The position numbers were made by a program, and so were the translations under genes. DNA of 64,000 bases from positions 73,594,001 to 73,658,000 of the forward strand of contig OX597819.1 in assembly GCA_951406725.2 (NCBI GenBank), given 5' to 3'. Below, piece after piece: positions 1 to 63,107 of this stretch. Within the stretch, counting starts at the first letter, position 1. The number at the start of each line of letters is the position of its first letter. The notes beneath the pieces are model-generated. The model worked only from the letters and a program-made list of their open reading frames with translations, was not told where the DNA came from and did no database searches. The stretch comes from Octopus vulgaris. Lineage: Eukaryota.

Positions 1-35
<35 letters not shown>

Positions 36-8049: not shown

Positions 8050-8114
<65 letters not shown>

Positions 8115-23100: not shown

Positions 23101-26100
23101 GGCAACTTGAAATGAAGTGTTTTGCTCAAGAACGCAATGCATCACTTTATCTGGGAATAGAAACCATGCTCTCACATTTGTGAATGCAACACCCTAACCA
23201 CTGAGCCACATACCTTCACATATCTGCTATTTGTTGTTTTATTATTATACTTGCCCCTAAGGCAGTCAGCTGGCAGAATCGCTAGCATGCTGGGCAAAAT
23301 GTTTGACAGTATTTTACCTGTCACTACATTCTGAGTTCAAATCCTGCTGAGGTCGACTTTGACTTTCATCCTTTTGGGGGTCAATTAAATAGGTTCCAGT
23401 TATGCATTAGGGTCAATGTAATCGACTTAAACCCTTCCCCCAAGCTGCCTTTGTGGCAAAAATTTGAAATAATTATTATACCTGCCCCTTTTCATGTAAG
23501 CCCCACTCAAGCTACCTGAACATACAAATGTATACAGATTCCCTAAATGTTTGCACTCACTCTGTATAATTGAAATAATTTGCTCTGACATATAATTTGA
23601 CTGTTTCTTCTTCTATTAAACCCAGTAGACTAACTTGGTTAGTGTTAACATAATTAATGTAGTGGACATTACAAATCTAATTAGAAATAATTGCACAGTG
23701 AGAAAAAGAAAATTTCAGCTTAGCTGAAATTGTCTTTATTTAATTATTTAAATAATATTATTTAAATAATTTCAGTAAGTTGAGGAGAGAACTTCAGTCA
23801 TGTTTCAGCTGTATGAGGCCTCCTCAGTAAAGTATTAACACTACTGTATTTTCCAAAGTAATTAGCAGTACATTGTTGTGGGTAGCAAGAACACTGCATT
23901 GAGTATGTTAACACTAACTTGCCACATGTTTTTTTTCATATGGCTGGCATCCTTGAGTAGTTAACCCCATATGTTATTGTTTTCATAGCTTACTTAATTC
24001 ATCTTCACATTTAGAGAGCTTTTACTGAACTCAGCCTCTATATCTAACAATGTTAATCACAACAATTTCAAAATCTCACATCCTGTATATATGATATTTG
24101 CTGTTGTTGTTGTTGTTACTATTATTACTGCTGTTGCTGCTGCTACTACTATTGATGAAAATATTAACAAAAAAGAAAAACAAAACATTTTTGTTGTTAC
24201 TATTATCATTGTTTTTGTCATTCTCCAGCAGAGATTCAACTTACAATGCCTATTTCAGTGTTTACCAGCTTCATCTGTGGCCATCATCTTCTCAGTCATG
24301 CTGTTGGTGGCACTAATTTGTTTGCACAAAGACTAAATGTAGTAATACTTTCAACACTCAACAATATATCCCTGAGAGAAACTGAGAAGCTATCCAGATA
24401 TAAAGACGTTAAAATAGAGATAACCAAAACGTGTGGATTGAAAACAAAAGCAAATCTTAGTAACAGGTGCCTTAGAAATGATAAAAAAAGCAAGACACAA
24501 CTAATCAAAACTGCTGAACTTGGAACATAACATGAAGTATTTGATTATATAGAATAGAATAAAAAGAAACAGAAATAAATCAGAACATTGGGTGGTTGGA
24601 GAGAGCTGATAGGGATGACAGAAAAAACATAAGGGATTGAGTGGGTTTGTATAATGCTGGTGTAGGAGTAGACAATTCCATGGAAGAAAAACAGTCAGAG
24701 TAGTAAGCAAAGGGGCAGAAAAGAAAGAACATGTCATTGTGTGTGGGGTGGTTATTTAGTGTTTGGGGAGGGAATCCTTCTGGTTAGGCAGAAGGCCAAG
24801 TTTTGGTTTGGTCTACAGTGTTTCTCAATTTTGTTGCCTCTGGACCCCCTTTTGACTCCTATTTGACTCGGATGGGCCCTTTTACTCATTCAATGTTTCC
24901 AAAAAATCCTGTTATGTTTCGATGATTAAATATTATTAGGAATTGTATTAAAAAAATAATAAACATTTTGTGTATTGTAGAAATATAATCAAATTCTTGC
25001 AGATCAATTTTAACAGCAAAATCTTATGTGGACTCCCAAGGACCATATGGATCCCGGTTGAGAACCACTGGTCTAGAATATGTGCGTAAGAGCTGAGAGT
25101 CTGATTAGCATTTGGACAACGCCTGAATATGGTAGAATTTGAGAAACTGATCAGAGTGGAAGTATTTGCTTGTCTTGGAACAGAAACCCAGTTACCATGG
25201 AAATCCCATCAGAAATTTTGAGATTTAATATTTGAAGCAAGTGTGATAGTTTTAGCTATGATTTTCTCAAGAACAAGATAGGACGTGCTTTGAATGGATT
25301 GTTTGCATTTTTATTTTATATTTTTAATGTTTTTGGATAGTATTGTATCAGACAAGGTTGTCATATTTATATTTTAGTTCTGTGCTTAAGAAATGCAATG
25401 ATCAACATATTTAGATTTTGTGTGGACAATTTCTAGACTTGCAGTAAAACTTACTTTATCGATTTCTGCACCCCCTTTTCTCATTTTACCCCAGTCTAAT
25501 CTTCATTGTCTCTGCCCCCTCCCCATCTTGGGGCTTGTAGTCTCTTGCAAGCTGCATGGTGACCTCTTCAGTGCTGGGGGTACGGAAAAGAGCATCCAGT
25601 ACATTCCATAAGGTGGTTGGCATCAAGAAAGTCACCCAACCATGAAAACTATGCCAAAGCAAACACTGGAGCATGACGATGATGATGATGATGATGGCTG
25701 TGAGTGGAGGTGAAGGAAGAGTAAAGATAACATTTGCATGGAAGTCATGGTGTTGAATGTGGCACCAAAAATGTTCTTAATGTACAGAAGCAGTTCTGTT
25801 GACATAACTGAAGCCTGGAGCACACACGTCAGATTATTCTCTCAAATGTGATGCTTATTCACTCGTATTGTTTAGAATTGCTCATGCATTATTCTGTAGC
25901 TTCAAGATTTTGATGATGTGGTTGTTTGTTTCTATAATGACATTGTAGACTGGATGTGAGAGACCAGATCTGGTCTGTTTGAACAGAAAACATGTAAAAT
26001 ATTTGAGCTGGATTTGACCAGTTTAAATGCTAAAAGATTAAAGAAGGATTTTTTTTCTCCTGAGAGAAAGAAGGAACACATAGATGGGCAACTTAGCCAG

Positions 26101-29100
26101 GAGGTGCTCAGGCCAGACAGGAATTCTTTGTTGATGCTGAATTTCTCTATGACAAGAGATCACTGGTCTGTCATGTAGAAAATTAGGTCTTTTGTAGAGA
26201 TGGCACTAATAAAATGGTATTAATGATTGGCTGAATTATGGAAGTAAGGATATTCAAGATGGTAAAGAAGCAGGTGGTTGTTTTCATCTTTTAGATGTGG
26301 AATAATGTAAGTTAGAGATATAGAGTAATTATTGGAAAAGTCTATTTTCATAGGTTGGCTGATTCTAATAATAGGGAAAAGATTGAAAAGGTCAGTGAGG
26401 TTAGGAACTAGGCTAAAACTACACTGTTTTGAAGGTAATGGTAGGGATCACCATTGAAACGGTTTATGAAGTGATTTGAGGAATTCTGTTGGTAGTTGTA
26501 TGAAGAGAAGTAGATACGGATTAGAAGAGGAGTTTTGGAAAAGTTTTCCTGTCTGTAGAATTTGAAGCAAAGTACAAAACAAACTTGGGTTTACATATGT
26601 TTATGATAATTACAGAGCGACTTTCATTGAAGATAATCTTGCAAAGTTAACAGAAATGTTATGGTAAAAGATCAAAAGTTGTCAGAGGGTCTAAATCCCC
26701 TTTTTCGGGAGGTGAGAAAATTTGCAGGATGTTTCAGTACCTGAAAGCAATGTTTGTTGGCATTATGATGGAGGATGTTTGCCCTTTAGCTATGTTTCTG
26801 GATGACTTTCTCCAGATGCTGAAGGCCATGTTCTTGGGCAGTTATGGGTGAGAAAGTTGGTTGGGGGATTGTGATCTTTGGTTGTATGAAGGACTTTGTG
26901 GATTATATTTAGGAAGACAAAGCTGTCTTGGATACGTAGGAAGGAGAACCTAGCTACTGTGTTGGTGTATCTTGGTTAACTGATTTGAAACAAATCATTT
27001 CAGTATTCTAGCCTAGAAAGTAGCAGAGGAATAGACTATAGCCAGGTGAAAGAAAACCCCACCAAAACCCTGCCAAATATTTTGTTACAGTTCTCAATAT
27101 TAGACCTCTATAAACTGAATTAAGATATTATAAAATTGTTATACCTCACTCACTATGTCACATAGTTTTGTTACAACTCACACAAAGTCTGACTTGTCTT
27201 CTGCCAAAGTAATTATTCTATCAAACAATTGTCCTTCAATTTACAGGTGACTCATTATTACATGTTCTACCTTGACATTTCTTTGATCTTAATTAGTAAC
27301 AGAGTCTCTTGTGAGCTATTTCTCTCCATATTGCATTCATTTTAATTCACTGCAATGCAGTTGAGTCTGTTCTCTCTTCTGTTCTTACTGAAGTAGACTT
27401 TAAATAGAATAATAAATTTAAACAAACACACACACACTTGCTCTTGCTGGATTTGTAAATTTTTCTGTTTAAATCCAACCCATGACTTTTGGGTCTGAAA
27501 GTAGTTTCCCATTTGTCATGTAATGCCTTTATTTGTTTCACATGTTTAATCTGTCCCCCCATCCCACCCCCAATAAACAAGCTCTTTGAAGGAACCAATT
27601 AAATTTGTTAATTGAGTAACTGAATGCTGGGACTGCAGTTTTTATTAATTTTATATTACATGTTTTTTTTTTGTTTTTTTCATTGCAATGTCTTCTGCAG
27701 CAACAGCAGCAGCACTCAAAGGTTTTTTTTTTATGCACTGGTGTTTGTGTTGCAGTTCCTTCAGCAATGTGCAAAGTACTGCCTGAATATGCACTGCAGT
27801 AGTTTTGCTACATTTGAAGAATTTGTCAGCCCTTTTTGACTTTGTATATATGTTTGTGACTGTGTGGATATGAAAATGTATATACAGTAACCCTTTGACT
27901 ATCGCAGGTATTATGTTCCAAAACCTCCCACAAAAATAATTAAATTCTAAAAAAATATAAATACATATCAGCCACAGAAACCCAGATATACAAAGGAGTC
28001 CATGATATAAATTTGCATATATTAACCAGAAAAATCTGTGATGTATTGAGTGTACAATAGGTGAACCGTGATGGTGAGGGATTACTGTATATGTATATAT
28101 ATAGTTCTTTGATAAATTTTTTTATGTTCCTTCTCTTTATTTTAATTGTTATTGTCTTCATCAGTCTATACTATTTTCTCGTTCATTGTTCATGATTTCT
28201 TGTCAATGTTCCACTAGCTTGTCAATGCCTTAACAGTAGAAATCGCTGGGGGCCTTCTTGATTCAAATAACATTGGAAACAAACAAGCAAATTTATCTGA
28301 CAACCCTACACACACACACACACACACACACAATTTGCGTGCCCTTCATTATGCTGCTTATGATGTTTACCATTAATTATATTTTAGTGTTTAATTCTCT
28401 TGTGAATGTTGTGTTGGTCTGCCCTTGTTTCTCACTTCTGTATATTTGTTTCACTGAGTCAGACAAAACCAACTAGAAGGCACAGTTACAACTATTGTTT
28501 CACATCTTTTTGTTGAATATTTTATTTAAATATTATTAGCACCAAAATAACTTCTGCTCTTAGAACTGTGTCTGTAGGTCTTTTATCAGTTAGTAGCATA
28601 AGTCTCTATAATCTATATGATAGCTATAATTTGATCTTTGCCTGTGTGTTGCTACGCTACACTGCCAGCCATTTCTCTCATCAGTTTTCACACCAACTAC
28701 TGCTTAACTCACACTACACTATCAGCTCTTTCTTGAGAGTAAGAGACGGGGAGGCTGTATGTATGCTTCTATGTGTAAAATAGAGATGGAAAGAGTAGGT
28801 GAAATAAATGTGCATGCACACACAGCACAGCAGATACTGCATGATATATGTAGCAATCTACCATCTTTAAGATAGTGTGTTAGCACATATATATATATAA
28901 ATATAAACAAATACATCTTGTTATATTTTGTGCATCAGTTTGTTTTAGTAAGTACAATAGAAAAACTGAGTTTTAAAATATATAACAACATTGACACCTT
29001 GAATATGTATATTGGACATAAAGTGGAAAATGTAAAACAAGAGAGCAGTGTTGATTGATTTGGAATTGGCAATTGAGAATTTCTAGCACGTCTTTCAAGC

Positions 29101-30017
29101 CCAAATTGCAGTTACTTTTGTAGGAAAGAGCACTATTTCCAACAAACCACGAAATATAGAAGTTTATATCCTCTCTTTGAAGTCACAGATAACTTAGCCA
29201 GAGAAGTGCCATTTATTTTACTTTTGTACTTAAAGGAATGAACATGGTTAGATAATTGGCCTTGAATTTCGAAGCATTCACAGGTGTTTTGACCAACAAC
29301 TTATTAAATCATTCATTAGACATCGTATCTAAAAGGGCATATATCACACTTCCTACAGTTCCACATTGTATTGGGTGTGTAATCATAAGAGGCTTTATTT
29401 GTTCTGTTAAGGTTAATTGTCATTAAATAACTCATTATTATCTTTCCATTTCTGTGCCAGCCAGTTGAGCCTTCTTTCTCACCTTCCTTCCTTTCTTCAA
29501 AATGCAGAAACATATCTATGAAGTGTTTGGCATTTTATTTATCGGCATCACACACACACGCACACACTTATATCTGTTCATTGCCTGACTTGTTTTGTTA
29601 TTTTATCATTTATACTGAGTTGCTTTCCCTCATCATTCACCATTTTTGATTTGTATATTTGCGAAATATTTAATTTTTTCATTTCAGTTTGTAAATTTAT
29701 CAAAGATATGTTGCAAATTGCCTGGTCTTTATTTAGTATGTGTGTGTGTGTGTGTGAGAAAGAGAGAGAGGAGAGAGACCTTTCAGAAAAAAATTAAACA
29801 CATGGAGGAAGGTGACTGTGTTTTAAGCCTTTTTTTTTAAATCTTAATTTTCTGTTTGTTTGTTTTGATCATTTATTTTTCAGTTTAGCTTTCTATAAAT
29901 TTTCCAACTTGTCATAGTTTTTGATTTGTTTTTCTTTGCCTTGTTATCGTAAATTGCAATTTTTGTACAAATTTTCAGCCTTTTCCCTCACTGTGACCAT
30001 GCTGAATATATATCCTG

Positions 30018-30061
<44 letters not shown>

Positions 30062-30181
30062 TTGTCTTTTATCTTTGTGTTAACATAATTTTGTCTGATA
30101 AATAGTGATTCCTGTTTTTACAAAATATTTCTGTTTCTTCTAATTGTTGTTGTTATTGTTGTTTCTGTTATATACTCGTGC

Positions 30182-30224
<43 letters not shown>

Positions 30225-31534
30225 TGCTCTTTCATTGAATATTCTGACCCAGTTTTTCTTTTTGTTTTTCTCCCTTTTTCTTCTGAACTTTGTGTTTTCT
30301 TTTATTGACAACCACCTAACCTTTTTAGTAAATAAACATCTTCTGGTTAGGTAGATGGAAAATAATGATATTTTGAATTGCTTTTAGAATATAGAAATGA
30401 CTTGTTTTGAAAGACAAATCAAATAATCTTATATTACGGGAGATCAACATGTATATAGTCTTATATGTTTGCTATAGCAGCTGACCTGGTCTTGTGTCTA
30501 TTACTTTATTCATTTATCAGATTACAGTTATATACAATCATTATTTCCAAAACTGAGAATCTTTTATATATATATATATATAGTGAAGACATGACACGAT
30601 AGGTAAAGAAATTTGAAAAGAAAATACAAAACCGGTTATTTCTCCAAAAACTATGTTACTATACGCAAAATTTTATAATATTTTTCTAAATTAACAACTT
30701 AAATATATTCTTTAACCATAAAATACAAGCCTTCTGTAGTTTTTTCAATCTTTTTTGTTTATATATATATATATATTTGGAGAGGAGATTTTTTTTCTCA
30801 AAGAGTTAAGATTGAGAAGAAAACCTTTTTAGAAAGTCAAAAGACACTAACCTTTGGGAAGAGATTTCACAAAATCTCTGTGGCTTTTGCTTTTATTGAT
30901 GTGCAAGCGCTTGAAAATGTTAAGGACTTAAAGCGCTTGCATATCTATAAAAGCAAAAGCCACATACATTTTGTGAAATCTCTTCCCAATGGTTAGTGTC
31001 TTTTGACTTTCTAAAAAGGTTCTCTTCTTAATCTTAACTTTTTGAGAAAAAATCTTCTCTCCAAATATTATAAATGTATCAAGGAATTTCCAAAACACTC
31101 CATATATATATACATACATATATATATATATAGTAAAGTATTAGCAGATGCTCAGGGAAGGAAAGAAAGATGGTTTAATGTTTTGAGTGAAGCTCTTCTT
31201 CAGAAACAGAGGAAAGTCCAATAGAAAAGGAAGACAGAAGAAAAAAACATTGTTTACATTATTTACAATTGATGGATATTTGTCCTCATCTTGTTTGTTG
31301 TTAACACAACGTTTCAGCCTTAAATATAGAACTGTAGAGGAAAAAAAAATCGCCAACAATTCACATATATAGGCGCAGGCATGGCTGTATGGTAAGAAGC
31401 TTGCTTCCCAACCATGTGGTTCAGGGTTCAGTCCCACTATGCGGCACCTTGGGCAAGTGTCTTCTATTATAGACTGAGGCTGACCAAAGCCTTCTGAGTG
31501 GATTTGGTAGACGGAAACTGAAAGAAGCCCATCG

Positions 31535-31566
<32 letters not shown>

Positions 31567-34500
31567 GTGTGTGTCTGTGTTTGTCCCCCCGCTATTGCTT
31601 GACAACCGATGTTGGTGTGTTTATGTCCCTGTGACTTAGCGGTTAGGCAAAAGAGACTGATAGAATAAGTACTAGGCTTGCGGGGAGTTAGTCCTAGGGT
31701 TGATTTATTTGACTGAAGGTGGTGCACCAGCATGGCCACAGTCAAATGCCTGAAACAAATAAAAGAATACGTGTGTGTGTGTTTGTGTCTCCTTGTCTTC
31801 ATCTCATGTGGTAGATGTAAACAGGTGTCGCTGTAAAACAAGCAATGCTACTCACTTCCAACATTCAGCGGAAAACCTGTCCAGCCATGGGAAAATATTA
31901 CCTTGGAAACATACAAATGTTGGCAACAGGAAGAGCATCCAGCTGTAGAAAAAAAATCTCCCTCAGTAAACTCCATGTGAGCTTTGTAAGCATGGGGAAA
32001 TGGATGTTCTGTAAGAGGGGGCTAGTTGGCCTAGGGAAGCATATAGCTTATTAGTAAGGTTGTTTTTAGCATATAAACATAGGCATGGCTATGTGGTAAG
32101 AAGTTTGCTTGCCAGCCACATGGTTCTGGGTTCAGTCCCTCTGCATAGCACCTTGGGCAAGTGTCTTCTATAGCTTCATGCTGACCAAAGCCTTGTGAGT
32201 GGATTTGGTAGATGGAAACTGAAAGAAGCCTACCAAGTATATATGTGTGTCTGTTTCTCCCACATCATTAACTGGCAACTGGTGTTGGCATGTTTACAAC
32301 ACATTACTTAGCAGTTTGGAAAAAGTGACTGATAAAATAAGTACCAAGCTTTAAAATAATAGTACATGTGTCAATTCATTCAGCTAAAATTTCTTTAAAG
32401 CAATGCCCCAGAATGGCCGCAGTCTAATGATTGAAACACATAAAAGATAAATTTGAACATTTCACAGTTTTGTATGCATATGTCCTCATTAGTAAAATGC
32501 AGATATAATTAATGAAATTTCAGTTTGACTTTACTTAGCCTGTGTTATACTTTTGATAAATTTAATCATAAAAAAAAATAAATTATCAGAATGTTTATCT
32601 TTTTTTTTTGTGAGTTTTGTCCATATTTACACACATCTCTAATCCTGTGCCATTTGTTTTAAAATAGGTCTATATATTGGTCTGCAGCTGTTATTTGGTG
32701 ATCTTCCCTTCCTCAAATCTACCAACCCAATACCTTTCAATAAAGGTGCGGCATTAGTCCAGCAGTGCAGTTTCCCAGAGTCTTTATTGCCAGGTCAAAT
32801 ATTTTTTATTTATTTATTTATTTATCTCTATGCTATTTCCAAATTCTTGCTAATCTTAACAACATATTTCTTTGTGTCAAGGCACATGGCTCAGTGGTTA
32901 GGGCATTTGGTTCACAATCGTAAGGTCGTGAGTTCAATTCCTGGAGATGTGTTGTGTCCTTGAGCAAGACACTTTATTTCACATTGCTCCAGTTCACTCA
33001 GCTGGCAAAAATGAGTAATTGTAGATAAAGGGGCCAGCCTTGTCACATTCTGTGTCACACTGAATCTCCCTGAGAACACCATTAAGGGTACACGTGTCTG
33101 TGGAGTGCTCAGCCACTTGCACATTAATTTCTTGAGCAGGCTGTTCCGTTGATTGTATCAGATGGAACCCTTGTTGTTGTAACCGACGGAGTGCTTGTCT
33201 ATTTCTTAGTGAGGTTTATAAATATTTGGAAACCAATAATTTTTCAGGTCAATTTCTTACCAAAACTTCCTGCAATATCACGACAATGGAATTCTTTCTT
33301 TGCAATGAATTTAGATGTATTGGATGTTACAAGTTATTCTTGTGGAATCTCAGCTGAGATGATTAGATGCAACACCATCACAATCACCATTTTATATACA
33401 TTTTCCAAGCTGACATAGGTTAGAATGGCTTGACATGATCTAACAAACTAGATGACTGTGTCAAGCACCAGTCTATGGTTTGGCATGGTTTCTACGATTC
33501 GATGCCCTTGCTCTCACCAGCCACCTTACAGAGTGTACTGGGTACATTTTTGTGGCACTGGCATCTTACAAGACAAAATGCCTCCAATTAAGTGGGGTTG
33601 TCATTGACTGGGGAGATGTCATTATGCTGGGTAATGTGAGGTTGAACTATGACAGAAGGACAGAGACAGGTGTCTTGCTGTCAGGGAAATACATGGCTAC
33701 CCTGCACAATATACGGGTGGATGGGAGTTACTGGAAAGAAGACAAAGATGGTGTTTATGAGGTGTTGGAGCATAGAAGATGAGAATAAGACAGAATACGG
33801 ACATAGATTTGTCTAGTTTGGAAATTGATAGCATTTATGAATAGATGGAAGCTATTGATGTATGACAGGATGGGTTATTTTGCAGTTTGGTAAATCAGTT
33901 CCACAATTATCTGCAATGTTAAAAGTTAATCATAAAATAGCAGGAATGATATATCTAAAAGACACACTTTTCAAACAAAAGTTCATTCTTTCATCCCTTC
34001 CATTATTCATCATCATCATTTAATGTCTGTTTTCTATGCTGGCATGGTTGGATGGTCTGACAGGAGCTGCACCAGGTTCCATTGTCTGTTTTGGCATGGT
34101 TTCTGTGGCTGGATGCTCTTTCTAATACCCACCACTTTACAGAGTGCACTGGGCAGTGGCAGCTTGTGTTTAGGCACTGCAGAACTGCAGCACCCCTCGT
34201 TTCCACTCCATATTATTGATAACATTCAATATGATGAATAGTATTTTTCTTTAATTATTTCTTTATACTTGTACATTACATAATCCTTAAGCTTAACTTC
34301 AGTAGCCATCCCCTAGTTTATGAAAGAAATACAAAAATCCTTGTATAGAACTGTGCTCTTCACAGTTCCATCTACACACTGTTTGGCTGTTGTGCGTATG
34401 CTTACATGTCTGAGATAAGAAACTTCACATAAGGGAGGGAGAGAGAGCACTGCGTGTACGACAGTTCCACGTGAAAGGTAGTGTCTTTTTTTGACTGTGT

Positions 34501-37500
34501 TGTGCTTAAAAATGTGTTTATATTCTTGAATGTGATAAAGTGTAGAATTAGATTATTATCCTGGGTCCAACTTCAGTGTTGCTGCCTGGATTTGAAAAAC
34601 AGGGCACATTCCCCCCCCCCCCCCGTATTTTGTGATTTGGGGGGATTTTTGAAAAACAAGGGAGAATTTGTGACAGTGTTCAGTGAACAGATTATACACA
34701 CTACTTGGTAGTGGCTAAAACACGAACTGATCAAGTTTATGTATAAATTTCCTTTTTATATGTTTGTTTCTTTTTACACAATATTAAAACAATGGCGAAA
34801 AATTTTCTGAAGAGCAGACCCCCCCCCCACTAATTTTATCTACGAGCTGCCACTGGTTCTTGGTGCTTTTTATGTGGCACCAACACCAGTGCTTATTAAC
34901 TAAGAAAAAAAAATGTGTAAGACTCTGCAATGGTCAGGGGACTTCTACTCCATTTAATAGGAATAGAAGAAAATAAAAGATTAAAATAAATTGACATGAT
35001 ATTTATGAAAAAGGGTCATCTAAGTTGTTATTAGTTGTTATTATGAGGAACCCACAGAAAAGTGGGACAGTAAGCCAAGGAGGATTCCAACAGATCAGCC
35101 AAGCATAAGTCTGGAGTAGAGTTGCTCATATACAAAGTAGAGTGGGTTGCTCTCACGAAATGGTTAAGCATTTTTAATACTGGTGTAAACTGTCACATTT
35201 TGACGGGTTACCTGAAACACACCAGGGATCCGGTTGTATGAAAGGAACATGGCAGGCACTATTTCATTGGCACCATTTTAAGTGTATCCATAATCATTGA
35301 ACCAATTACTTCTGTGCCACTTTTCTGCTCATGCATGATTGCTGAAGCTATTTAAAACCAATATCATTATTACAATTTTAATGGTCATCATCATGTGACA
35401 TCTGCTCTCCTTGCTAGTTTATGACCAGAAAGAGTAAAGGCACAAATACAAGTAGCTGAAATGGGGTTCTTCCAAAATATCTCTGGGCTAATATTACTCA
35501 TCAGGGTGCATAGCTTGGAGATCAGGGCCTCTCTCCAGGTTGAGTTGCTACTTCTCTGCTATGAGGGGTCACAGTCCAACGGACATGTGGTTAGAATGTT
35601 GCAGGAAAAAATTGCAAGACAGATTCTTGAAGCTGAACCAACCAACAGGAGACCTCGGTTGGTCATGTTTGGGAATCCAGCAGGAAAGAGTAATGACGGC
35701 TGCTTTTGATTGGCCCCTAGCAAGGAGGTGCCTGAGGACTCTATGCCTCATGACTAGGAAGGAGGTGCCTGAGGACTCTACGCCTCATGACTAGGAAGGA
35801 GGTGCCTGAGGACTCTACGCCTCATGACTAGGAAGGAGGTGCCTGAGGACTCTACGCCTCATGACTAGGAAGGAGGTGCCTGAGGACTCTATGCCTCATG
35901 ACCCCTCCCCCACAGGAATAGTGGACAGAGGAATGGCTGAATAAATGTTTTTCTTCAATGCTTGTTTGTTAGCACTTTTTTTAAATTTAATTTTTTCTTA
36001 CATTAGGTGATGTACGGAATGATCTGTATATAGTTTTGTCCCATGGAGAGTTCGAGCGAGGCAATAAGACATCGGCAAAGAATGTAGAAGTGACAATGAA
36101 AGCTTTTGATAGCATCGGAGAATCAATTCCTGTAAGTTAAGAAATCATTACCTTGTCTTATATTCTTGTCAGAGCATAAATAAAATGGCGATTTTCCCTT
36201 GTATTTGATTCAGCTGCATCTGTATTGTTTTCTATCAATAACAATACATTTTCATATCTATTTTTGCATGCTAGCTTGGATTAGATGTATATATTACCAA
36301 GGCATTGTTATATAGTTGGCTGCCTTTACAGTCACTAACCCTCATCTGTTTATCAGGTTAGGGATTTTTTTTCTTCACACACAAAATGAGTGGACAATTT
36401 GTTGACAGCAACACTGCTAAAGCTCCCAACATTTGCAGAGCATAAGTGTAAAAACATAGCTGCATACACATGTACACACCTATGCAAAACAGGCTGGCTT
36501 GATGGGCAGGGCAATACATATATATATATTTCTGTCTGTTTATACAGTGTAACTTCTATCCTGTAATGAAATGTGTGTAACATGGAATTAAAAACGGCAA
36601 ATTTTCCAACCTTTCTTTTAATATAAACTTACTCTGCAAATATGATTCTCCAGAACCCCCACCTAATATATATGCTTCATTGAAAATTAACATTCTGAGT
36701 GTGTGTGTGTGTGTGTGTGTGTGTATACACATATACAAACATGGGTGTGTGGTGAGTAGCTTGCTTACCGACCACATGGCTCTGGGTTCATTCCCACTGC
36801 ATGGCATCTTGGGTAAGTATCTCCTACTATAGCCTTGGGCTGACCAAAGCCTTGTGAGTGGATTTGGTTGATGGAAACTGAAAGAAGCCCATCATAGATG
36901 TGTGCGTGTGTCTGTTTTTGTCCCCCCACCATCACTTGACAACTGATGTTGGTGTGTTTACATCCTTGTAACTTAGCAGTTTGGCAATTGAAGCCAATAG
37001 AATAAGTACTAAGCTTACACAGAATAAGTCCTGGGGTCAGTTTATATATATATATATAAAACAAATTATTATCTCTATTTATTGTAATTCATGAGGATTG
37101 TGAATTTATGGCTGTTTTTTCCTTCCTTTTTTCTGCAGGATTGTATTTATCGAGGTATTGGTGAACCACCATCTTCATATTATCATTCCACCGTTTTCTA
37201 TCACTCCAATAACCCAAAATGGAAGGAAACAGTCAAGGTGAGTTATAACTTTTCTGACTAAAATATTCTCATCTATGGATTACCATCTTTGCACACCCAT
37301 ATTCCATCATTTACTAATATTCTGTATTTTTTCTCCTCAGAAACTCCCCACCACCACCACCAATACCATCTTTCCTTCGTCTTTTCTGCCATTGATACAA
37401 TGGTTTTGGTTCCCCCAATCCTATTGGTGTAAATCTAAATGCTGTAAATTTGTTTTTTTATATATAAGTTACACACTCTCCACTCCCGATCTGCTCTTAT

Positions 37501-43500: not shown

Positions 43501-44334
43501 CTTAAGTAACAGAAGCTATCGACTACTTCTGGATATCCCCCTTGGCATTTGTTGGAGTCTATTTCCTGTACATTTTGTACATCTGCTACACACAAAGACT
43601 ATTTTGCCCTGTTAACTTTCATCTGATATTATTGCACCTCTTTTGTGTCCATACCTTACACCCGGTCCATCTTATAGATTTTCTACCTACATTTTTTCTA
43701 CATATGGAGCAAGGCCATCTACCTGAAGAGATTTGTGATTTTGTCTCCTTTCCTACTTATTAGGACTTTGGTTTTTGCTAAATTAACTCTAAAACCCTTT
43801 GATTCCACTCCTGAAATTTCTTCTCCAAATTCGGTAGTGATTCAGCTTTAAGAACAAGGTCATCATTGAAATTTCCAGTTAACTGTTTTATTGTAGTCAT
43901 CAGATATATCTACTCAAAATTTCATTATCCTTAACTGTGGAGAGCAGTTTTATGTACCAAGGTGTCTTTTGTTGAAGAATCTCATATTTGAAACTAATTT
44001 TTGCTGAGAAACGTTGAGTTTATTAAACATGACAACTCTCTCATTTCCTCCTCCTTTTTTGATTTTCTCCATTCATCCTATCATGTCAACTCTCTCTCTT
44101 TCTTCTCTCCTCTCTATCTCCCTTTCTCTCTGTACAATGTAAAGAGGGATGAGAGAAATCAACCCACCAATGCTTGTATCAGCTATTAGTATTTGAGTTC
44201 ATATTCTGCCAAGGTCAGCTTTGCCTTTCATCTTTTCAGGCTCGATAAAATGAGTACCAGCTGAGTGCTGGGGTTGATGTAATCGACTAGTCCCCTCCCC
44301 TAAAATTTCAGGCCTTGTGCTTGTAGCAGAAAGG

Positions 44335-44396
<62 letters not shown>

Positions 44397-49695: not shown

Positions 49696-49728
<33 letters not shown>

Positions 49729-51357: not shown

Positions 51358-51418
<61 letters not shown>

Positions 51419-54400
51419 GAAATGAAGAAAATGCTGACAAAATAATTTAAGTAATTTAATTAGGTGAAAGTTCTTTTTACTGGTTGCGCATTTGTTATGC
51501 TTATCAAAAGATGTTTTTTTAAGAGTGATAGAGTTCCTTTCTGATAGATTTTTTCCTCTTATCTGGAAAGGAACTCTATCTCTCTTAAAAAAACATCTTT
51601 TGATAAGCATAACAAATGCGCAACCGGTAAAAAGAACTTTCACCTAATTAAATTACTTAAATTACTTAAATTATTTTGTCAGCATTTTCTTCATTTCCTT
51701 TTTTATATATCACAACTCGTGTTCCACATCTCCTTTTTTAAATATATATATATATATATATATAGAAATATGTACTTGGTTATGTTAGTCACTGTATTGA
51801 CCAGACTGTTAGATGTTGCTATAGACTGCTGATCACAGTGCGCTTTGTTACATTATAGTTGCTTTTGAATAATGCTACCCCACTAGCTAGGCAAACAGGG
51901 TATATAAATATATATATATATGGACAGCAAAAGCGAGATAGACTGAGGAAAATGTGGAGGGGACAGGCGGAAGATGAGACTGGGAGGGTGTGCTTGAGAA
52001 GGGAGGATGCCCAAAACCAGGCAAGATGGCGAGATGATGTGAGGGCAGTTGCTATGGCATTGAGATAGATCCAACTACCTCTATTAATAGGGACAAAACC
52101 TGGATTTAAAATGATTGATGATGACGATCAGTGTTTTTGTTTGTGTATCAAGATGTTTGTACATCAAGTGATTGTTGGTTGTGATTATTTATTACTGTAT
52201 GACTTAGTGTATGGAATACTGTTTCATGTTGACAATAAATTTATGCATTGTTTAAAAACAAAATGCCTTTCTTTTATTTCAGAGCATACACTGTTGAAAG
52301 ATCTGATGAATTCCCTCAACTCATATATTTAGTTTTCGAAAAAATGGGGTACCTTGTATCGTTAAATCAAGATAACTTGTCAAGTTGTCAGGTAATGTCA
52401 ACGTTTTATTTATATCAAATTTCTCATTGATTGATTGTGCACATATAGTAATACTTCATCATCATCATTTAACATTCATTGTCCATGCTGGCATGGGTTG
52501 GACAGTTTGACTGGGCTGGCATACTGGAAGGCTACACCAGACTCCAGTCTGATTTGGTATGGTTTTCTATGGCTGGATGCTCTTCTTAATGCCAATCACT
52601 CTGAGAGTGTAATGGCTGCTTTTACATGCCACCAGCATGAGTGCCATTTGTGTGACACTGGTATCTGCCACGACTGTGATTTTGGTTGGCTTGATGGGTC
52701 TTCTTTTCAAGCATGACATAATGCCAAAAGTCTTGTGAGGCCCAACATTCGAAAGGTACTCTGATATTAATATTCTAACTATATAAAGCCATTTAGATAC
52801 GCACTTTACATATAGATATATACTTTTATTAGAACTGCAAAATTATCACAAAAACTGTTACTCAGAGTTTCATGTTCCTGTTCATCAGGTTTGTGTAATA
52901 TAACGTGATGTAATTCAAATACACAAGTAATTATTTAAATTTGATTGGGTCGTTAATTTTCAAAATATAATGGTGTAATATTCATTACTAGCTGGGTGTT
53001 TGGGGGCGGGGTTTGAACATTACCAGTAAGGTGTATATAAATATAAATATTATAATGAGATAAAGAACGAAACCTTGCTTAGAGCGTGATGTGTATGTTT
53101 GCGTGTTTATGCAAAACACATTTCTGATGCAGGGGTCTTGTAGTAGTGGGTAGGTGACAAACATGTAACCAAACAACTTCTTGACTCTCCATATTTGAGA
53201 AAAATAGTAAGAAAATAAATACATGTGAATAAGCAAATCTGACCAAAACAATTTTTGGTGTTTTACAAATCACCAACATGACTCTTCTGTTATGTAATTG
53301 TCATATATATATATGTGTGTGTGTTTGTGTGTGTGTTTGTGTGTGTGTGTGTTGTTATCGTTAGGCCTAGCTCGTCATAAAGTAAATACCACCATGACCG
53401 ATATCCAAACTACGATGGAAAAGGCTATCCATTGGATTTGGTTAAAAAGAGATGATGAGTGATGGCTAAAAGAATATTGAGCTTTATTTAATAACCAGTT
53501 GATCTAGCAAGTGGGGCCCCATATCAGTGATGGGGTAGTGCTGGTGTGCATTGATGCCGTCGAGAGGTAGGCACCGAAGCAGCATGCATTCTATCCTGAT
53601 GACCCCATATACTTGCTGGCTTCTGGTATGCGGAGTTCTTGAGTAGTAGCACTTGCATGTGCAAGTTGTTTGCAAAACATTTTATTATGATTAATGACAT
53701 TGAAAATATAAAAAAAAACGTGGCTAAGTAATTTAATGTGCTAATGATTTTAATGAATTAAGTTATAACATTGATGTGATACTTACTGTATACCTACTTT
53801 TGCACTGTGCCTTTGTATGTGTTATACGAATTTCCAAAAGGGTAATTGTTTTAATTCTTTTTTTTGTTTCTGTCTGTTTCAGATCTTACTGCTGAGCAAC
53901 ATCCCCAACACTTATAATTCCCTGTTAAAACTGCTGAGTAAGAAAGATGTGACAATATATGTTGTCAACATCATCAATTTTATGCCGAAAGAGCTCTCAG
54001 AGTCCCTGTTTAGCAAGAAATTAGAGTTCCTTCACGAAACTCTCAAAAGTGAACTAGTCACTGATAGAGGTAGGTATCATCATCGTCATCATCATCGTTT
54101 AAGTTCTGTTGTCCATGCTGGCACGGGTTGGCTGGTTTGACGAGAGCTGAAGAGCTGCACCAGGCTCCAGTCTGACTTGGCATGGTTTCTACAACTGGAT
54201 GTCCTTCCTAATGCCAACCACTTTACAGAGTGTGCTGGGTGCTTTTTATGTGGTACCACACAGGCACTTTACATGGCAGCGCCACAAGTGCTTTACACCA
54301 CCAGAGGCATCGGTCTTAACACATCTGCTGTTGAGGAAGGGTCATCTTTAAATATATAACTTCCTGTACACATCTTTTATCCCTTGCTTGTTTTAGCCAT

Positions 54401-55929
54401 TGAACTGTGGCCATGCTGGGGAACCTCGTTGAAGTGTTTACATTGAACAAATTGTCCTCAGTACTTATTTTTAAGTCAGTTATGTATTCTATTGGTCTCT
54501 TTTGTCAAAGCTCCAAGTTGTGAGAATGTTAACAAACCAACATTTGTTGTCAAGTGGTGCAGAGTGGTAGACTCATCACACTCACACACACACACATATG
54601 CACACACATGCACAACAGGCTTTCACACAGATTTTGTCTACCAAATTCACTCACAAGTGTTGGTTTGAGGCTACAGCAGAAGACATTTGCCCAAGGTGCC
54701 GTGCAGTGGGACTGAACCCGAAGCCATGTGGTTGCAAAGCAAGCTTCTTAACCACACAGCCAGGCCTGAGCCCTACATCTTAACCAAAGTTTTGAGTCTG
54801 TTGTACAGCCCCCATAATCATATTCATTTTCATGATTTTGTCCTAAACAAGGCTTGAGGTCAGTGTAGTATAAGGAACTACAAAGAAGGAATTCAAAAGA
54901 TCTTGTCTGGAGCAGTTTTGCTTCTGGTCAGTTATTATTATCCTTAAAATGGCAAGCTCGCTAGGTGAAAAGCTTAGCAATGTTTCATCTGCCACAATAT
55001 TCTGAGTTCGAGGTCGACTTAGCCTTTCATCCTTTTGGGGTGTTGATAAAATAAGTACCAGTGTAATCGACTTGATCCCTTCCTCCAAATTTGAGGCCTT
55101 GTGCTTCTAGAAGAAAGGATTATTAAGATGGCAAGCTAGCAGAATGGTTAGCACATCAGACAAAATGCTTTGCAGCATTTATTCTGAGGTCAAATCCTGC
55201 CAAGGCCAAGGTTAGCTTTTTCTTCTATCCTTTTGAGGTCAATAAAATAAAGCACCTTTTAAGTACTGAGGTCAGTGTAATTTCCTAATCCTTACCCCTA
55301 AAACTGATGGCCTTGGGCCCAAATTTACCAGTTGGCAGGATTGTTAGCCTGAAGGGCAAAATACTTAGCAGCATTTCTTTCATTTGTATGTTCTGAGTTC
55401 AAATTCTGCTGAGATTTACTTTGCCTTTCATCCTTTCAGGGTCAATAAAATAAGTACCAGTGAAACACTGGGGTTGATGTAATTGTCTTAGCACCTCCCC
55501 TGAAGTTGCTGGCCTTGTACCAAAATTTGAAATTATCACCATCACCATCATAATCATCATCATCATCATTATCATTTAAGGTTGCAAGCTGACAGAATTG
55601 TTAGCACGCCATGTAAAATGCTGCTGAGGTCGACTTCGCCTTTTATCCTGTCATGGTTGATAAATTAAGTACCAGTGAAACACTGGGGTTGATTTAATTG
55701 ACTTACCCCTCCCCCAAATTTGGTTTTGCACATTGTGTTGTTCTCGAGAATGTTTAAGAAAATTATGTGTTTGTTTTAAAATTTGAAATTACATAGACAG
55801 TATTTTACGTAGGATATGGGCAGTTCCCATGAGCACTATCCTTTGAATTTCTGCCATTTTGGGGTTTCCTGGTATCTGGGCTAGGTAGCAATCATTTGCT
55901 ATCATTTTGCTGTCATTTGCTATCATTCC

Positions 55930-55982
<53 letters not shown>

Positions 55983-57124
55983 TCCTTAGATTCTCGAATG
56001 ATGCTGCTGCCTCTCTGTATGTCTCAAATCAAACGCTGTTTCATTGGGAAGCAATTATATACCCTGGCTACAACCATTTTGGGTGATATCCTTTGCTTCC
56101 TCCATTCACTAAAATTAGTAAGTAGCCTTTATTTTCATGACCTTTTTTTTTTTGTTGTTGTTTAGTTGTTCCATGTTGTGGAACAAATTTGAAGACAAAA
56201 CCTCAAATGCTTGTCTCTTGAAATCAAAAAGAAAAACTCTGCATAGAAGACATTGCTTGATCAGTTCTTACCCTTTTGTTTGTTCCAGTCACTACCCTGT
56301 GACCATGCTGGAGCAGTGACTTGTCAAACAAATGTCATCCCCATTATCTTTTTTTAAGTCTAGTACTTGTTTTATCTTCTTTGCCAAACCACGTATATTT
56401 ATTGGGATGTAAACAAACTAACACTGTTATCAAGAAGTGCTGGATGGGCAAACACAAAAATGCATGCTCTCACACACACACATGCTCACATGCATGCATG
56501 CTCACCCATGATGGGCTTCCATACAGTTTCCATCTACCAAATCCACTCAGAAGGCTTTGGTCAGCCTGAGGCTATAATAGAGGTCATTTGCCCATATTTC
56601 TGGTTTCCTAGGAACAGCATGAACAAAATCTCTATTGGATTCTTGCTAAAATGGTAATAGACAACACACGTAGAAAAAAAAAGATAAAAATATTCAAAAT
56701 AGACAAATGATCACATTGCAGCTTTGTGGTCAAGTGTGTTTAAGACTCATTGTTAATGGTGTCCACAATAGGTACAGTTCTATATTCAAGAGATGAGGAA
56801 CTATGTACATTATTTACATTTTATGGATATTTGTCCTCATCTTGTTTGTTGTTAACACAATGTTTCGGCTGATATATCCTCCGGCCTTCATCAGGTGTCT
56901 TGGAATAATTTTGAACTTGGGTTCTCATTCCTAAAGTATTTTTCAATGTTGTTGTTGTTGTTATTATTATTATTATTATTATTGTTATTATTATTATTCA
57001 CGTCACTGCTTGGAATCGAACTCGGAATCTTGGGGTTAGTAGCTCCTAACCATGGGCATATGGTATAGTGGTTAAAAGCGCGGTCTACTAACCCCAAGAT
57101 TCTGAGTTTGATTCCAGGCAGTGG

Positions 57125-57171
<47 letters not shown>

Positions 57172-60100
57172 TAGAAAAATACCTTAGGAATGAGAACCCA
57201 GGTTCGAAATTTCCCCAAGACACCTGATGAAGGCTGGAGGGTATATCAGCCAAAACGTTGTGTTAACAACAAACAAGATGAGGACAAATATCCATCAAAT
57301 GTAAATAATGTCCACAATAGGTGTTGTTAACTTTTGATTTTGATCGCAGTGAAAATGGATTTTGCAATGAAACAAGTGTGTGAACCGAGCACTTCATCTT
57401 GTAAATGAAGAAGGCCTTGACTCTTTTGCAGTTGAGGAAATTATTAATGATATTTGTTCATTGGACAATGAGTTTACTCTTACACCAGCAGTGATACGGG
57501 CAATCAAATCAGTGAATGAGATGAGGAGAGCAGTGACCCGCTTAAAGAAATAAAGTAGTTGAGAGGATAGGCCTATCATTGTTATTCTCCTGAATTGTTT
57601 TGTGAATCTGTCCATTTAAGTTTTCCTGCAATGGTTACTCTTGAGCTGTGTCTGCAATTATTTATTTTATTTTGCTCAGGAGCCTAAGTAGAGGGAGAAG
57701 TTAGACATAGGGGCCCAGGTCTGAGAGGGTTAATAATGACAATTATTTTACAAAATTCTTTATTATTTTGAAAATCAATTGAAACAAATGCAGAAATATA
57801 CTAACAAAAGGGTTTTTAAAAAAGAGTTCTTTCTGAAATCTATTTTCTCATGCCTATAATGTTAAAATTATAAAATTAGGATGAATCTGAATGTCAGCTT
57901 GAGATTTTCATTAGAACCTGTATTTGGTGTTTATTTTGTTTGAGTTTTATTTCTTGTTATCCAATCATTAAGTTATTCCCTCTTGGACCTGCCTCGGGGT
58001 CCTGGGACATGACCTCTTCATACTCCTGCCCTTCCCAGAGCAAGCTGCTGGCTTATTGCTGCTTGTACAAGCATTGGGCAAAGACTACAGTATATTTTTC
58101 AAATGGACTCCTCTACTTAAGATCTGAATGCTCCCTTTGTTAACCAGCACAACAGAGATGCTGTATGGTTATTCTTTTAAATCCTTCTCGTATTGTCTCT
58201 AAGATGTAGAAAAGAGTAGAGAAGAAAAAGTCATAAAGAAAGATTGATAGAAGTAGAGGCAGTATACAAAGATATGGAAAGAGAAAATGGGCAAGAGAGA
58301 CTGTTTCCAAGGAAACAGTAGAAGAAAAGAGATGCAAGTGTAAGACATTAAAAGATAAGCCTTTGTCACAGCGAATAAAATCTTGAAAATTACGTTTTGA
58401 TAAAAAATTAATTGGAATTATAAGAATTTTCTAGAATTGGAATTATAAGAATTATCTAGACAGTGTTGATTTTAATAATTGCATTCTTTTATTAGAAATT
58501 CCATACAACTAATAAGCAGCTTTCTTATTAAAATATAGATACACGCACACACACACACACAAACCTGCACAAACCCTGATTGGAACCGTTTTAGCTTTCA
58601 ATCCTCTCCTTCTCTAAAAAATCTCCTTCAATGTTATTCCCTCTGAACATTTTTCATTTGTTTGACCCATTTTTTTGCCAGACTTCCTTTTTTATGACTT
58701 CAGAAATTTCAATTAATTTCTTAATTTAATTCTTGTTTTCAATTGTTTTAATTGTCTTCTTGGTTTATTTCATTTCAGAAAGATCCTGACTCTGTGTCTG
58801 AAGAGATCCGTATTGTTATAACTTCAATTTTTCAAGTAGTGTTAAGAGCTATTGATGTTTATGATATTTCCGTGAGTATTATTATAACAGCCTCTTCTTT
58901 TGTAAATGTGAAGTGGTGGTCTTCCTTCTTAACCTACTCAGCTTTTGAAGTTCATCACGTCAACACTAAGCACATATTTGATGAGTCACAGTTGGTTGTT
59001 TTGGATAAAGTTCCATTTGAAAGCTTTATTCCAGTGGTTCCCAACCTTTTCACTACTAAATTTTCCCACTGACCCCTAGTACTACCTTTGCAGACTACCA
59101 GGGGTCCGTGGGCCGCAAGTTGGGAACCACTGGTTTATTCATTTGTATTCAGACTGCCTTTAAAAAGAAAAAAGACAAAATGGTCATAATTTGCATGTTT
59201 TAAGTCCATTCGATTTCTTTGATTTCTTTGGCATTACTACCATTTCTCTGGTATTACTACCTGTAATATTTTAGGGATAAGTTGTGTGTTGTCTTTGAAT
59301 TAATATACTCTGATTCCTCTGAAATCTATGGACTTTGGCAACAAAACTCGACATAAATACCATATTTTGTGTCATGGAAGACACATCTTGACTTTGGAAA
59401 TGTAATTCTAGGAAAATATTTTTCACACATATCAAAGCTCCATCCATATAATTGGGAGGTGATAGCAGAAGTACACTAAATGCCTGTTATCCAACAAAAC
59501 TGGTGGACGTAGCATCGAAGTGCTTGTCAAGAGGTGTTGTTTGGTTCTTGATGTTGGTGGAAAATGTCTTTCTAGAGCTGCATGTAAAAATAATTTACAA
59601 CACTTGGGATCAATTAACTGACATTTTATTTACTGCAGACAATGATTTCTATGTTGGTTTTTGAATGACAAACAAGGACATTGACACTACCGGGGGTGGG
59701 GGGAGCCATACTGCTGGGATCTATGACAATTTAACTGGTATATAGCAATCTGTGTCTGGCCTATTCATTGATGGCAAAATTTGTCTCTTCTAAACAGCCA
59801 TGAGAATGGAAACACATCAAACGACTACCTCAGCATTCTTGAGATTCCCCCAAAATCCCACTTTCACATAGGGCTCAATGAGAAATTCTAGAAAGTTGAA
59901 TTTGGATTTGGCGTGACACAGGTTGGTTGGTTTAATTGGCCTATCATGTGAAACAACAGTGGCTTAGCCGTGATGTTTACTTGGCTATCCAGTGATCCGA
60001 TTTCAAATCTGCTACATACTCATATCAGGTTTTGAACAAAATCATCAGATATTGATTACCTGTCGGTTATTTGCTGCCAGGTATTATTGTTGTACACAAC

Positions 60101-63071
60101 ACCATGTTCTGCACTTTAACTCTCTTGTAATTATCCATATGACACACCATAATGCTTGGACCACACCCAAAGTGTGACTTCCAAACCACTGAATACAGTT
60201 CCAAAGGAGATTTTATTTTGGATTTACACAACTACCCTTTTGTTTTCTTTGCTTTTTACAGATTTATCATTTCATTTGAGCTTTTGTTTTTTTGTTTTTT
60301 TTTGTTAGCGTGCTGTTGTTAGCTGTTTTGTTGAAATGTTGAGAATCATGGATGATGATCACTATACTGCCTTATTTGAAGCTTATGCTCAAGGAATTCC
60401 TCTAAGGGTCAGTATCTCTTATATTTTTCAAACCCTTATTGTATATATTATAAAGAGTTTATAAATACACGCATTTTAGTACACTTTTTGTTACAATATG
60501 TGCAGGCACAGGTGTAGCTGTGTAGTAAGAAGTTTGCTTCCCAACCACATTGTTGCATGTTCAGTTCCACTGTGTGGCAACTTGGGCAAGCGTCTTCTAT
60601 TATAGCCTTGGGCTAACCAGAGCTGTGTGAGTGGATTTGGTAAATGGAAACTGAAAGAAGCCCATTTTGTGTGTGTTTACAGACATACACGATGGGGCAG
60701 TAACAGGTGGGTTGGAACCAAAAGGGTTAAACTTTCCACTAAGGAATATGTCTGTCAACTGATTAACCCTTTTATTACCATATTTCTGACCAAATGCACA
60801 TTGTCTTTGATTTAATTAATTTTTGAAAATAATGAAGAATTTAGTAATAATCAGGTATTTGGAATATAAATTAAGATGGAATTTAGATGGAAGGTTTTAA
60901 TTTAGATTCCTTTAAAACAGGAAATTTATCTCATAGAACTAAGGGTGGGCTCGAGGAGGTTTTTTTTTTCAAAAGAGTCGAGTTTCCAGTTTATTCTTGC
61001 ATGTTCTTCAAGGTGTTTATTTATCAAGTACTCAATGTGGTAACCAAGTGAACCCTGAACTTTGATTAACTTTTTAGCATTGAAACTGGCCATTATCCAG
61101 CCAGAATATTCTAGTTGAAATTTACAGAAAAACAAAAGATGAAGACAGGTGTGTAAACAACAAGCAGGTGTAATAGTTTGATGCTCAGGAAGGTGAGAAA
61201 GTCTTTTACGCTTCGAGCCTACGCTCTTCAACAGAAAGGAACACAAGGAAATAAAAACAGAGAGAATAAAATTATTCTCCCCGTTCTGTGTTCAAACTGG
61301 CTAGATCTGACCTGTCACATGTTCTTCTAAAAATAAACAATCACATCATCGAAATCTCAAAGCCACAAGATAATGCATGATTAGTTCAGAGCAATATGAA
61401 TAAATAAGCATTACATTTGACAGAGTTATCTGAATGTTAAAAGGTTAAATATATAAAAGTTTTAAATCCCAATCATTTCTTTTTTTTTATAGGAATTATA
61501 TTTTTACATTTTTGTTTTTCAGGAATTTCTAAACCTGGTCTTAGTTACATTTCATAATTTAATCAATTTTGACACTTTCCCCTGTGATTGGTCTGTCATG
61601 CGAATGGTTATGAACAAGTAAGAATTTTGTTTTGAATTTCTCATTATTATTGTGATATTAGAAGAATCTGATTTTTGTTACCAGTAAATTGTATGGTCAT
61701 TGTTGTACTAAAAACTTGATCGGTTCAAGTCTTTTTTATAGACATTCTGAGTGTATTGTCTGTCATATAGACATGACAGATTATTATTATTATTATATAT
61801 GAAGGTGGCGAGCTGGCAGAATCGTTAGCATGCTGGGCGAAATGCTTAGTGGTATTTTGTCCGTCTCTACATTCTGAATTCAAATTCCACCATGGTCGAT
61901 TTTGCCTTTCAGGGTTGATTAAATAAGTACCAGTTATGCACTAGAGTGAGGGGGTTTAATGTATTCAACTAACCCGTCTCCTCAAAACTGCTGGCATTGT
62001 GCCACAATTAGAAAAAAATTATTCCTATCTGCCAACTGGGATGATGGCAATTACACTCCTTTATATTCAGTGCCATAATTGTGCTCCCTCTCTCTTTATA
62101 TATATCAGGTCATCCCATAAGTTCTGTCTGATTTTATCCTTTTTAAAATTGAATGAAATTTAATAGTATTTTAGAATGTCTAATGGAATCAGAAATTATT
62201 TTTATGCATTTGTGTACATTTAAACAAATTAAATATTATTTTACAGAATAATAGAATTAAAATTTCTTTGATTAAAACCCTTTCTAATATGACTACATCA
62301 TATGCCCATGAGTATATGGTGTAGTGGTTAAGAGCACAGGTTACTAACCCCAAGATTCTGAGTTTGATTCCAGGCAGTGACCTTAATAACACCGAAAAAT
62401 ACCCAAGTTTTTTTTTTACTATTGCGAAAGAATAATAAGGCTGGAGGGTATATCAGCCAAATTGTGGTGTTAACGACAAACAAGATGAGGACAAATATCC
62501 GTCAAATATAAATAACGTAAATGTCATTACTTATCTAATGTTTTCTGTTATCGTTTCAGTGTCATATTGACTTCAATTCACTATTTTGCTCGTGCTCTGT
62601 CTGACAACTTCTTACTGGACACCAACTTTGAATACCAAGTAAGTTTAGTGAAACATTTTCTGTTGTTTTTTTCAGCTTGTTAAAACTCCAGTTTTCTGTC
62701 AAACAGTGCTATGAGCTGAATTACTTATGTAATCCTGTGTTACAATATATGGAGTAACCTGCTAGAAATAGCAGTCAAATATTTCTCCAATTTCTCTATT
62801 GTTTTTTTTGTTTTTTTTTTAAGGAAGGATATATTGGATAATGCAATCTAAGATATATTATGTCTGAGAAAGACAGGATGGGCACAGATGGAATGTCTTT
62901 GAGTAGCAATCTACTTGATTAGACTGACTTGGGGCTGAAAAAAAATGCTTTCTTTAAATTTGAACTCAATAGAGGTGATCTATCTAGTAGACCAGTGGTT
63001 CCCAACCTGGGATCCATGGACCCCTGGTGGTCCGCAAAAGTAGTACTGGGGGTCCGTGAACTAAATTCAAA

Positions 63072-63107
<36 letters not shown>

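Follow-up and report, generated by a model that had tools for sequence, protein, structure and literature searches.

Minimal hammerhead ribozymes and Penelope-like elements

Minimal type I hammerhead ribozymes (min-HHRs) were described in metazoan Penelope-like elements (PLEs) by Cervera and De la Peña (2014; PMC4209133), and animal genomes are already known to contain many and varied examples in PLE ends. As reported there, a single Schistosoma min-HHR shows no cleavage and dimers have low activity. In the green anole, the hammerhead of the PLE Poseidon cleaved with added protein and not otherwise, cleavage was dispensable for insertion in vitro, and reverse transcription is described as starting internally at two sites, which defines the tail (PMC11167929). 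A PLE tail of 30–40 bp and inverted upstream arms are described for PLEs (PMC8557442, PMC11167929). The motifs analyzed here lie in a window of 64,000 nucleotides of the Octopus vulgaris genome (G000:C6:73594001-73658000; genome of 2.8 Gb in 227 contigs), the whole of which is spanned by one plus-strand DOCK gene, the gene already named in the sequence-only reading of this DNA. We interpret them as min-HHRs in the ends of dispersed repeats, which in families A and E directly follow Penelope GIY-YIG open reading frames (ORFs) and in the other families are likely Penelope ends as well, and which occur about equally in both orientations in introns, likely because a lone min-HHR does not cut. We place the probability of this interpretation at about 80%.

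The octopus motifs share with the type described in PMC4209133 the lack of helix III, the palindrome at positions 15.2–16.2, the short helix I, the covariant U3-A8 pair and, in several families, an additional nucleotide between position 9 and position 10.1 at the start of stem II. The genomic picture is also alike, with many divergent families per genome and mostly single motifs, some of them in opposite-strand pairs 100–700 bp apart. In contrast to the motifs as described in that paper, whose supplements may list further core variants, family G has U6, and in family E GCAA replaces GAAA.

Hammerhead motifs of the window

For comparison outside the window a sample of 1,788,500 bases (1.79 Mb) was used, made up of 180 stretches between exons of the same gene in 32 gene spans. 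The motifs and associated repeats of the window are as follows.

2672..2702, minus strand: min-HHR with intact core, of an old dispersed family found at 39 other places among 40 scored, at 69–89% identity
23792..23833, minus strand: min-HHR of family B, U16.1 mutated, with 3 relatives in the 1.79 Mb
31134-31247, minus strand: min-HHR of the 31134 family, G12 mutated, absent from the sequence-only reading
31249-31326, minus strand: family-A tail fragment beside the preceding motif (joint entry 31134..31326)
45172..45660, both strands: head-to-head pair of family A, the minus arm with a tRNA-like segment and a hammerhead (C3 at 45277), the plus arm 5'-truncated with a core at 45577 that has a U3:G8 mismatch
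49906..49961, minus strand: fully intact min-HHR of family C, with a 6-bp stem I and an ACGCGU palindrome, found at 39 other loci among 40 scored, at 87–92% identity
51055..51350, both strands: inverted pair of family D in which the stem II region is long; the core is intact on the sense arm (C3 at 51257) and carries G8A on the antisense arm
51440..51667, both strands: inverted pair of family E, with a U3-A8 core and GCAA for GAAA, the terminal repeat of a GIY-YIG PLE
52859..52888, minus strand: min-HHR of family F with an intact core; this copy has lost the 5' strand of stem I
56773..57318, both strands: head-to-head pair of family A, plus-arm core G12A
57055..57130, plus strand: tRNA-like segment with A and B boxes in the family-A terminal repeat
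61127..61294, minus strand: min-HHR of family G, U at core position 6 family-wide, A15.1 mutated in this copy
62314..62522, plus strand: sense copy of family A lacking a long opposite arm; tRNA-like segment and tail present, 5' half of the core deleted

Hammerhead-like cores were confirmed at all sites named in the sequence-only reading; each has a core, a stem II and a stem I formed from the flanks, and at every one of them stem III is replaced by a palindrome or near-palindrome of 2–7 nt, as had been noted. The proposed five to six unrelated families are indeed several, but number seven, with the copies at 45237/45572, 56854/57219 and 62430 all belonging to one of them, family A, to which the fragment at 31249 also belongs. 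Counting the families of 2702 and 31134 as well, the total for the window is nine. The min-HHR core (CUGANGA, GAAA and UH, or U3-A8) is found at 49961, 2702, 51257, 52888, 45277 and 56894, with helices I and II present and the palindrome in the place of helix III. Other copies in the window are core-mutated, and families E and G deviate family-wide. The full descriptor of the minimal form without helix III is passed in the window by 49961(-) and by 2702(-) alone, the latter absent from the sequence-only reading; a strict class was defined as core-intact, with G10.1, and palindromic. Rfam hammerhead models require helix III, and the lack of any Rfam hammerhead match in the window or in locus L006 is therefore uninformative; no tRNA match was returned there either.

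The two core variants are consistent within their families. U is found at position 6 in all 17 copies of family G in which the core is covered, and GCAA in all eight arms of family E seen (6/6 outside the window, at L052, L046, L152 and L213, and both window arms). An A6C hammerhead variant with low activity has been reported (PMC3088659), in the main text of which the term A6U does not appear. The 31134 family resembles a sister of family G with the usual A6. A direct repeat of ~105 bp flanks the family-C hammerhead region (~49745-49850 and 50285-50390).

Linkage to Penelope-like elements

Family A forms the 3' terminal repeat of a PLE, now decayed, with reverse transcriptase (RT) and GIY-YIG domains. 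At loci L191 and L195 an ORF with an RT domain (RVT_1, E=1.7e-7) and a GIY-YIG-like C terminus runs directly into the tRNA-like segment and the hammerhead tail, and five family-A heads extend upstream into a common sequence that at these two loci is the end of this ORF. The GIY-YIG motif was recognized by eye, the 107-aa C-terminal piece giving no Pfam GIY-YIG match. Among the fetched ORF-bearing copies the tail follows the ORF in 10/10 and the tRNA-like segment is present in 8/10, and one such copy (L241) carries an inverted upstream arm. The ORF piece has 3076 candidates genome-wide, of which the 150 scored are 79–100% identical and all decayed, with a longest open frame of 569 aa. Copies of family A are variably 5'-truncated with fixed 3' ends. 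The tail ends are bimodal, ~30 nt apart (32/71 at positions 135–144 and 31/71 at 165–171), and 27 of 47 clusters, a count that includes two loci twice, have arms on both strands (20/30 from the search, 7/17 from unselected DNA); two 3' ends and two-strand arms are PLE-like features. The pair at 56773..57318 follows the same tail pattern, its outer end being long on the minus arm and short on the plus arm.

As described for the green anole Poseidon (PMC11167929), family A has an RT followed by a C-terminal GIY-YIG without an extra zinc-finger linker (by eye), a hammerhead in the terminal repeat, two 3' ends ~30 nt apart and an ATG-led open frame through hammerhead and tail. Unlike Poseidon as described there, it carries, between stop codon and hammerhead, a tRNA-like segment with A and B boxes and an (AAT)n tract, and its scored ORF copies are decayed. 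Family E lies ~720 nt downstream of a GIY-YIG ORF (Pfam E=3e-7; RT motif by eye) at L052, where an inverted copy lies upstream. This family resembles the Neptune and Nematis PLEs as characterized in PMC8557442, with a CxxC-type linker before GIY-YIG, (TA)n ends and an inverted upstream arm, a likeness drawn from features; the GCAA core sets it apart from them. Families A and E both show the 5' truncation and inverted upstream arm of endonuclease-containing (EN+) PLEs, the tail having been examined for family A.

The seven other families are likely PLE ends as well, judged by their anatomy, by inverted pairs in families C, D and F, and by 3' ends at (TA)n in families F, G and 31134, rather than by ORF linkage.

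Predicted formation and cleavage

By analogy with published work, the PLE enzyme would start reverse transcription shortly past the hammerhead and usually stop early. Such an early stop would leave a terminal piece of 100–300 nt, often with an inverted, 5'-truncated second arm, and this is the structure seen here. Without stem III, cleavage is predicted to need a second copy that pairs through the palindrome, probably together with PLE protein. A solitary intronic copy would have no partner, would be nearly neutral in either orientation and would decay by point mutation. Cofolding favors a palindrome-paired dimer for 49961 and 51600, as a prediction.

Three raw RNA runs from one study contained 5030–7216 family-A reads each and no pile of read starts or ends; as the reads are unstranded, fragmented and derived from many copies, this is uninformative on cleavage. 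A recurrent strand-switch joint in the same family (L003:1672-1727; runs X22-X24, 138–166 reads per run) is probably an expressed inverted family-A copy.

The tRNA-like segment of family A

The tRNA-like A/B-box segment is the most unusual feature of the family-A repeat. An alignment of 33 heads shows its A and B boxes to be conserved. All three heads tried match tRNA-Thr(TGT) best out of 10 genomic tRNA genes, which represent five amino-acid types, and do so above 200 shuffles each. Of 46 head-bearing arms, 27 begin between -12 and +8 nt from the segment start (25/42 after removal of two loci counted twice) and five extend more than 30 nt upstream. These observations would suit a short form of family A that resembles a SINE: RNA polymerase III (Pol III) would transcribe it from the tRNA-like segment, and the PLE enzyme would copy it in trans. 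We give this explanation somewhat less than even odds. The pile-up of 5' ends may mark a Pol III start, but a fixed start of any polymerase combined with internal RT initiation in the upstream repeat gives the same pattern, as does fold-back at a small hairpin in the upstream repeat. Besides the blank Rfam result, ARAGORN finds no tRNA in the window at its default score and calls the segment only at a threshold that also yields many false calls, and a phage search with the family-A head gave weak tRNA matches only (E 0.6 and 2). The head with A and B boxes that is expected of a tRNA-derived SINE is present in the short form, but such a head should be missing from the autonomous partner, and here it is part of the ORF-bearing element. 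Classification of family A as an independent tRNA-headed SINE was dropped for this reason.

Should the segment function as a Pol III promoter, it would show how a Penelope terminal repeat can give rise to a SINE-like element. A broader and still tentative proposal, which we regard as rather unlikely, is that a Poseidon-type Penelope took up a tRNA-derived Pol III promoter, so that the terminal repeat could be transcribed alone and spread like a SINE by means of the Penelope enzyme, and that the A6U and A13C families are natural, cutting hammerhead variants. No description of a Pol III promoter or a SINE-like terminal repeat in Penelope was found in a literature search that lay outside most subscription papers and Repbase/Dfam.

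Orientation of intronic copies

The sequence-only reading had proposed that selection removes active sense-strand self-cleavers from introns, on the grounds that every solitary motif in the window is antisense to the DOCK transcript, that sense copies occur only inside long palindromes and that most of these are core-mutated. The copy at 62314-62522 contradicts the first two points, as it is sense, solitary within 1.5 kb and without a long opposite arm, having an inverted head of only ~12 nt. The third holds for 45577, for the plus arm of 56773..57318 and for 62430, but not for 51257(+), which is intact, or 51600(+), which has the core of its family. Damage is also found on antisense copies, namely U16.1>A at 23827, A15.1>G at 61234, loss of the 5' strand of stem I at 52888, 2 bp of stem I at 45277 and G8A at 51091, the antisense arm of 51257. 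Within the window, the proposal that it is the sense copies which are damaged therefore fails.

The proposal was examined in the 32 gene spans, which comprise myosins, spectrin-repeat genes and ion channels as well as 30 kb that follow the window downstream and were taken to be DOCK. Family matches below 40 bits or with less than 15 nt of motif overlap were left out, a 1.8-kb overlap between L072 and L073 was dropped, an apparent local duplicate (L108/L109) was counted twice, and copies with no opposite arm within a pairing distance of 1.5 kb were taken as solitary. Solitary copies number 26 sense to 28 antisense. Core-intact solitary copies are 10 sense to 13 antisense, or 8 to 6 when the U6 family is left out of the intact class. 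Mutated ones are 12 to 11 and truncated ones 4 to 4, and the strict descriptor gives 7 to 7. With a pairing distance of 7 kb the solitary ratio is 24 sense to 26 antisense and the core-intact ratio 9 to 12. For core-intact solitary copies a sense share of 10% is rejected (P=3e-5), as is one of 20% (P=0.009), whereas 33% is not (P=0.20). A strong purge of sense copies is thus rejected, and a mild bias of up to ~2:1 is compatible with the counts. The absence of in vitro cleavage by single min-HHRs also removes the premise of a purge. Sense cores are tolerated in introns, in keeping with a ribozyme that stays silent while monomeric, and the negative outcome of the orientation test is a useful one; no paper on the intronic orientation of min-HHR motifs was found in the literature.

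As a positive control, a SINE without a hammerhead gave 134 sense to 70 antisense (p=9e-6; 20 genes vs 8), indicating that the test is able to detect a bias; the three other hammerhead-free control repeats showed no clear strand bias. This SINE, of tRNA type with an (ATT)n tail (family at 44618-44858), is strongly sense-biased in introns, at 8:1 in the window. Tracts of (ATT)6+ outnumber (AAT)6+ on the sense strand by 170 to 76, and asymmetry of target or tail may explain the SINE bias.

A milder form of the selection proposal, in which some intact sense hammerheads cleave pre-mRNA as dimers or with protein and are removed from introns, appears unlikely. It would account for the window, where seven solitary copies are antisense and one is sense (p=0.07) and both fully intact motifs are antisense, and for family G with 11 antisense to 6 sense, and a 2:1 bias is within the range left by the core-intact counts. 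The ratio in the window is not significantly different from that in the remaining genes (Fisher p=0.12), and its antisense excess is most likely sampling noise. Over all solitary copies a 33% sense share is disfavored (26:28, P=0.015), intact and mutated copies do not differ in orientation (Fisher p=0.77), the descriptor is passed by four solitary motifs in sense orientation (L094, L137, L221 and L232), and in pairs intact sense arms are as frequent as antisense ones (10 vs 8).

Several results weigh against the interpretation of the motifs as PLE ends that are silent and orientation-neutral in introns. The two window motifs that pass the full descriptor and the lean of family G, which is not significant, are antisense, and each of the 17 copies of family G outside the window is solitary, unlike those of families A, D, E and F. 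The sample is small, with a 95% interval for the sense share of 23–66% for core-intact solitary copies and 34–62% for all. Gene strands were taken from Pfam exon matches and not from annotation; AT skew is negative on the assigned sense strand in 27/32 spans, which supports the assignments. For families B, C, D, F, G, 2702 and 31134 no ORF has been traced: B, C, D, F and G showed no direct linkage in 30 GIY-YIG loci, where the F and G matches resembled separate insertions, and 2702 and 31134 were outside that search. The predicted dimer of the family-A copy tested is not palindrome-paired, and its palindrome contains a G-U pair. Finally, Xenopus retrozymes are reported to be depleted from introns (10.64898/2026.07.22.740005).

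Abundance and nature of the carriers

A first-look DNA search of the genome gave 2042 candidates for family A, 483 for family C, 816 for family D, several as inverted pairs, and 44 for the 2702 family, and the 1.79 Mb contained 3 matches to family B, 3 to E, 9 to F and 17 to G. With 89 family matches across 23 of the 32 gene spans, the large and diverse hammerhead mobilome envisaged in the sequence-only reading is supported; its carriers are PLE terminal repeats in families A and E, and likely in the remaining families, and not tandem retrozymes.

It is unlikely that the families are non-LTR retrozymes, which are tandem, protein-free and replicate as circular RNA. The similarities to these elements as outlined in PMC7229834 and 10.64898/2026.07.22.740005 are the type I hammerhead, short non-coding units and a relationship to PLEs, from which retrozymes are themselves proposed to derive in the latter. 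In contrast to retrozymes, the octopus copies are not tandem but variably 5'-truncated or inverted with fixed 3' ends, and families A and E are ORF-attached; no head-to-tail hammerhead arrays were found among the listed repeat families of the window, and head-to-tail units each with a hammerhead and without an ORF were not seen.

Chance matches in AT-rich DNA have a negligible probability, since every named motif lies in a multi-copy family centered on it, the window has two core-intact full motifs against none in any of 40 dinucleotide block shuffles, and the strict class numbers 15 in the 1.79 Mb against none in one shuffle; with one core mismatch allowed the comparison is 112 to 65 in one shuffle, so a lone degenerate match is weak and degenerate copies need family evidence, which they have.

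Two other loci carry young elements. A young GIY-YIG PLE family at L037 has many open frames of 781 aa, a hammerhead of U3-A8 type and a long 3' region with tandem sub-repeats, and was probably active recently. A cluster of young, intact min-HHRs lies near a contig end within a myosin gene span (L081-L088, C15:200-280 kb).

Host gene and other features of the window

1..64000, plus strand: host DOCK gene (DOCK_N, C2 and TPR regions), with exon matches in and around the window

A DOCK_N exon lies 2.6 kb upstream of the window on the plus strand, a TPR_DOCK exon at 63367-63486 and another TPR_DOCK exon just past the window end. DOCK-like exons at 2258, 3781, 36007, 37139, 44914 and 45796 were recognized by eye, without a Pfam score. 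The hammerhead motifs are all outside the located DOCK exons. The window also contains long inverted repeats at 22078-22613 and 30791-31052 (97% and 93%), which were missed by the hammerhead scans, and an array of a 19-bp minisatellite at 11427-11958.

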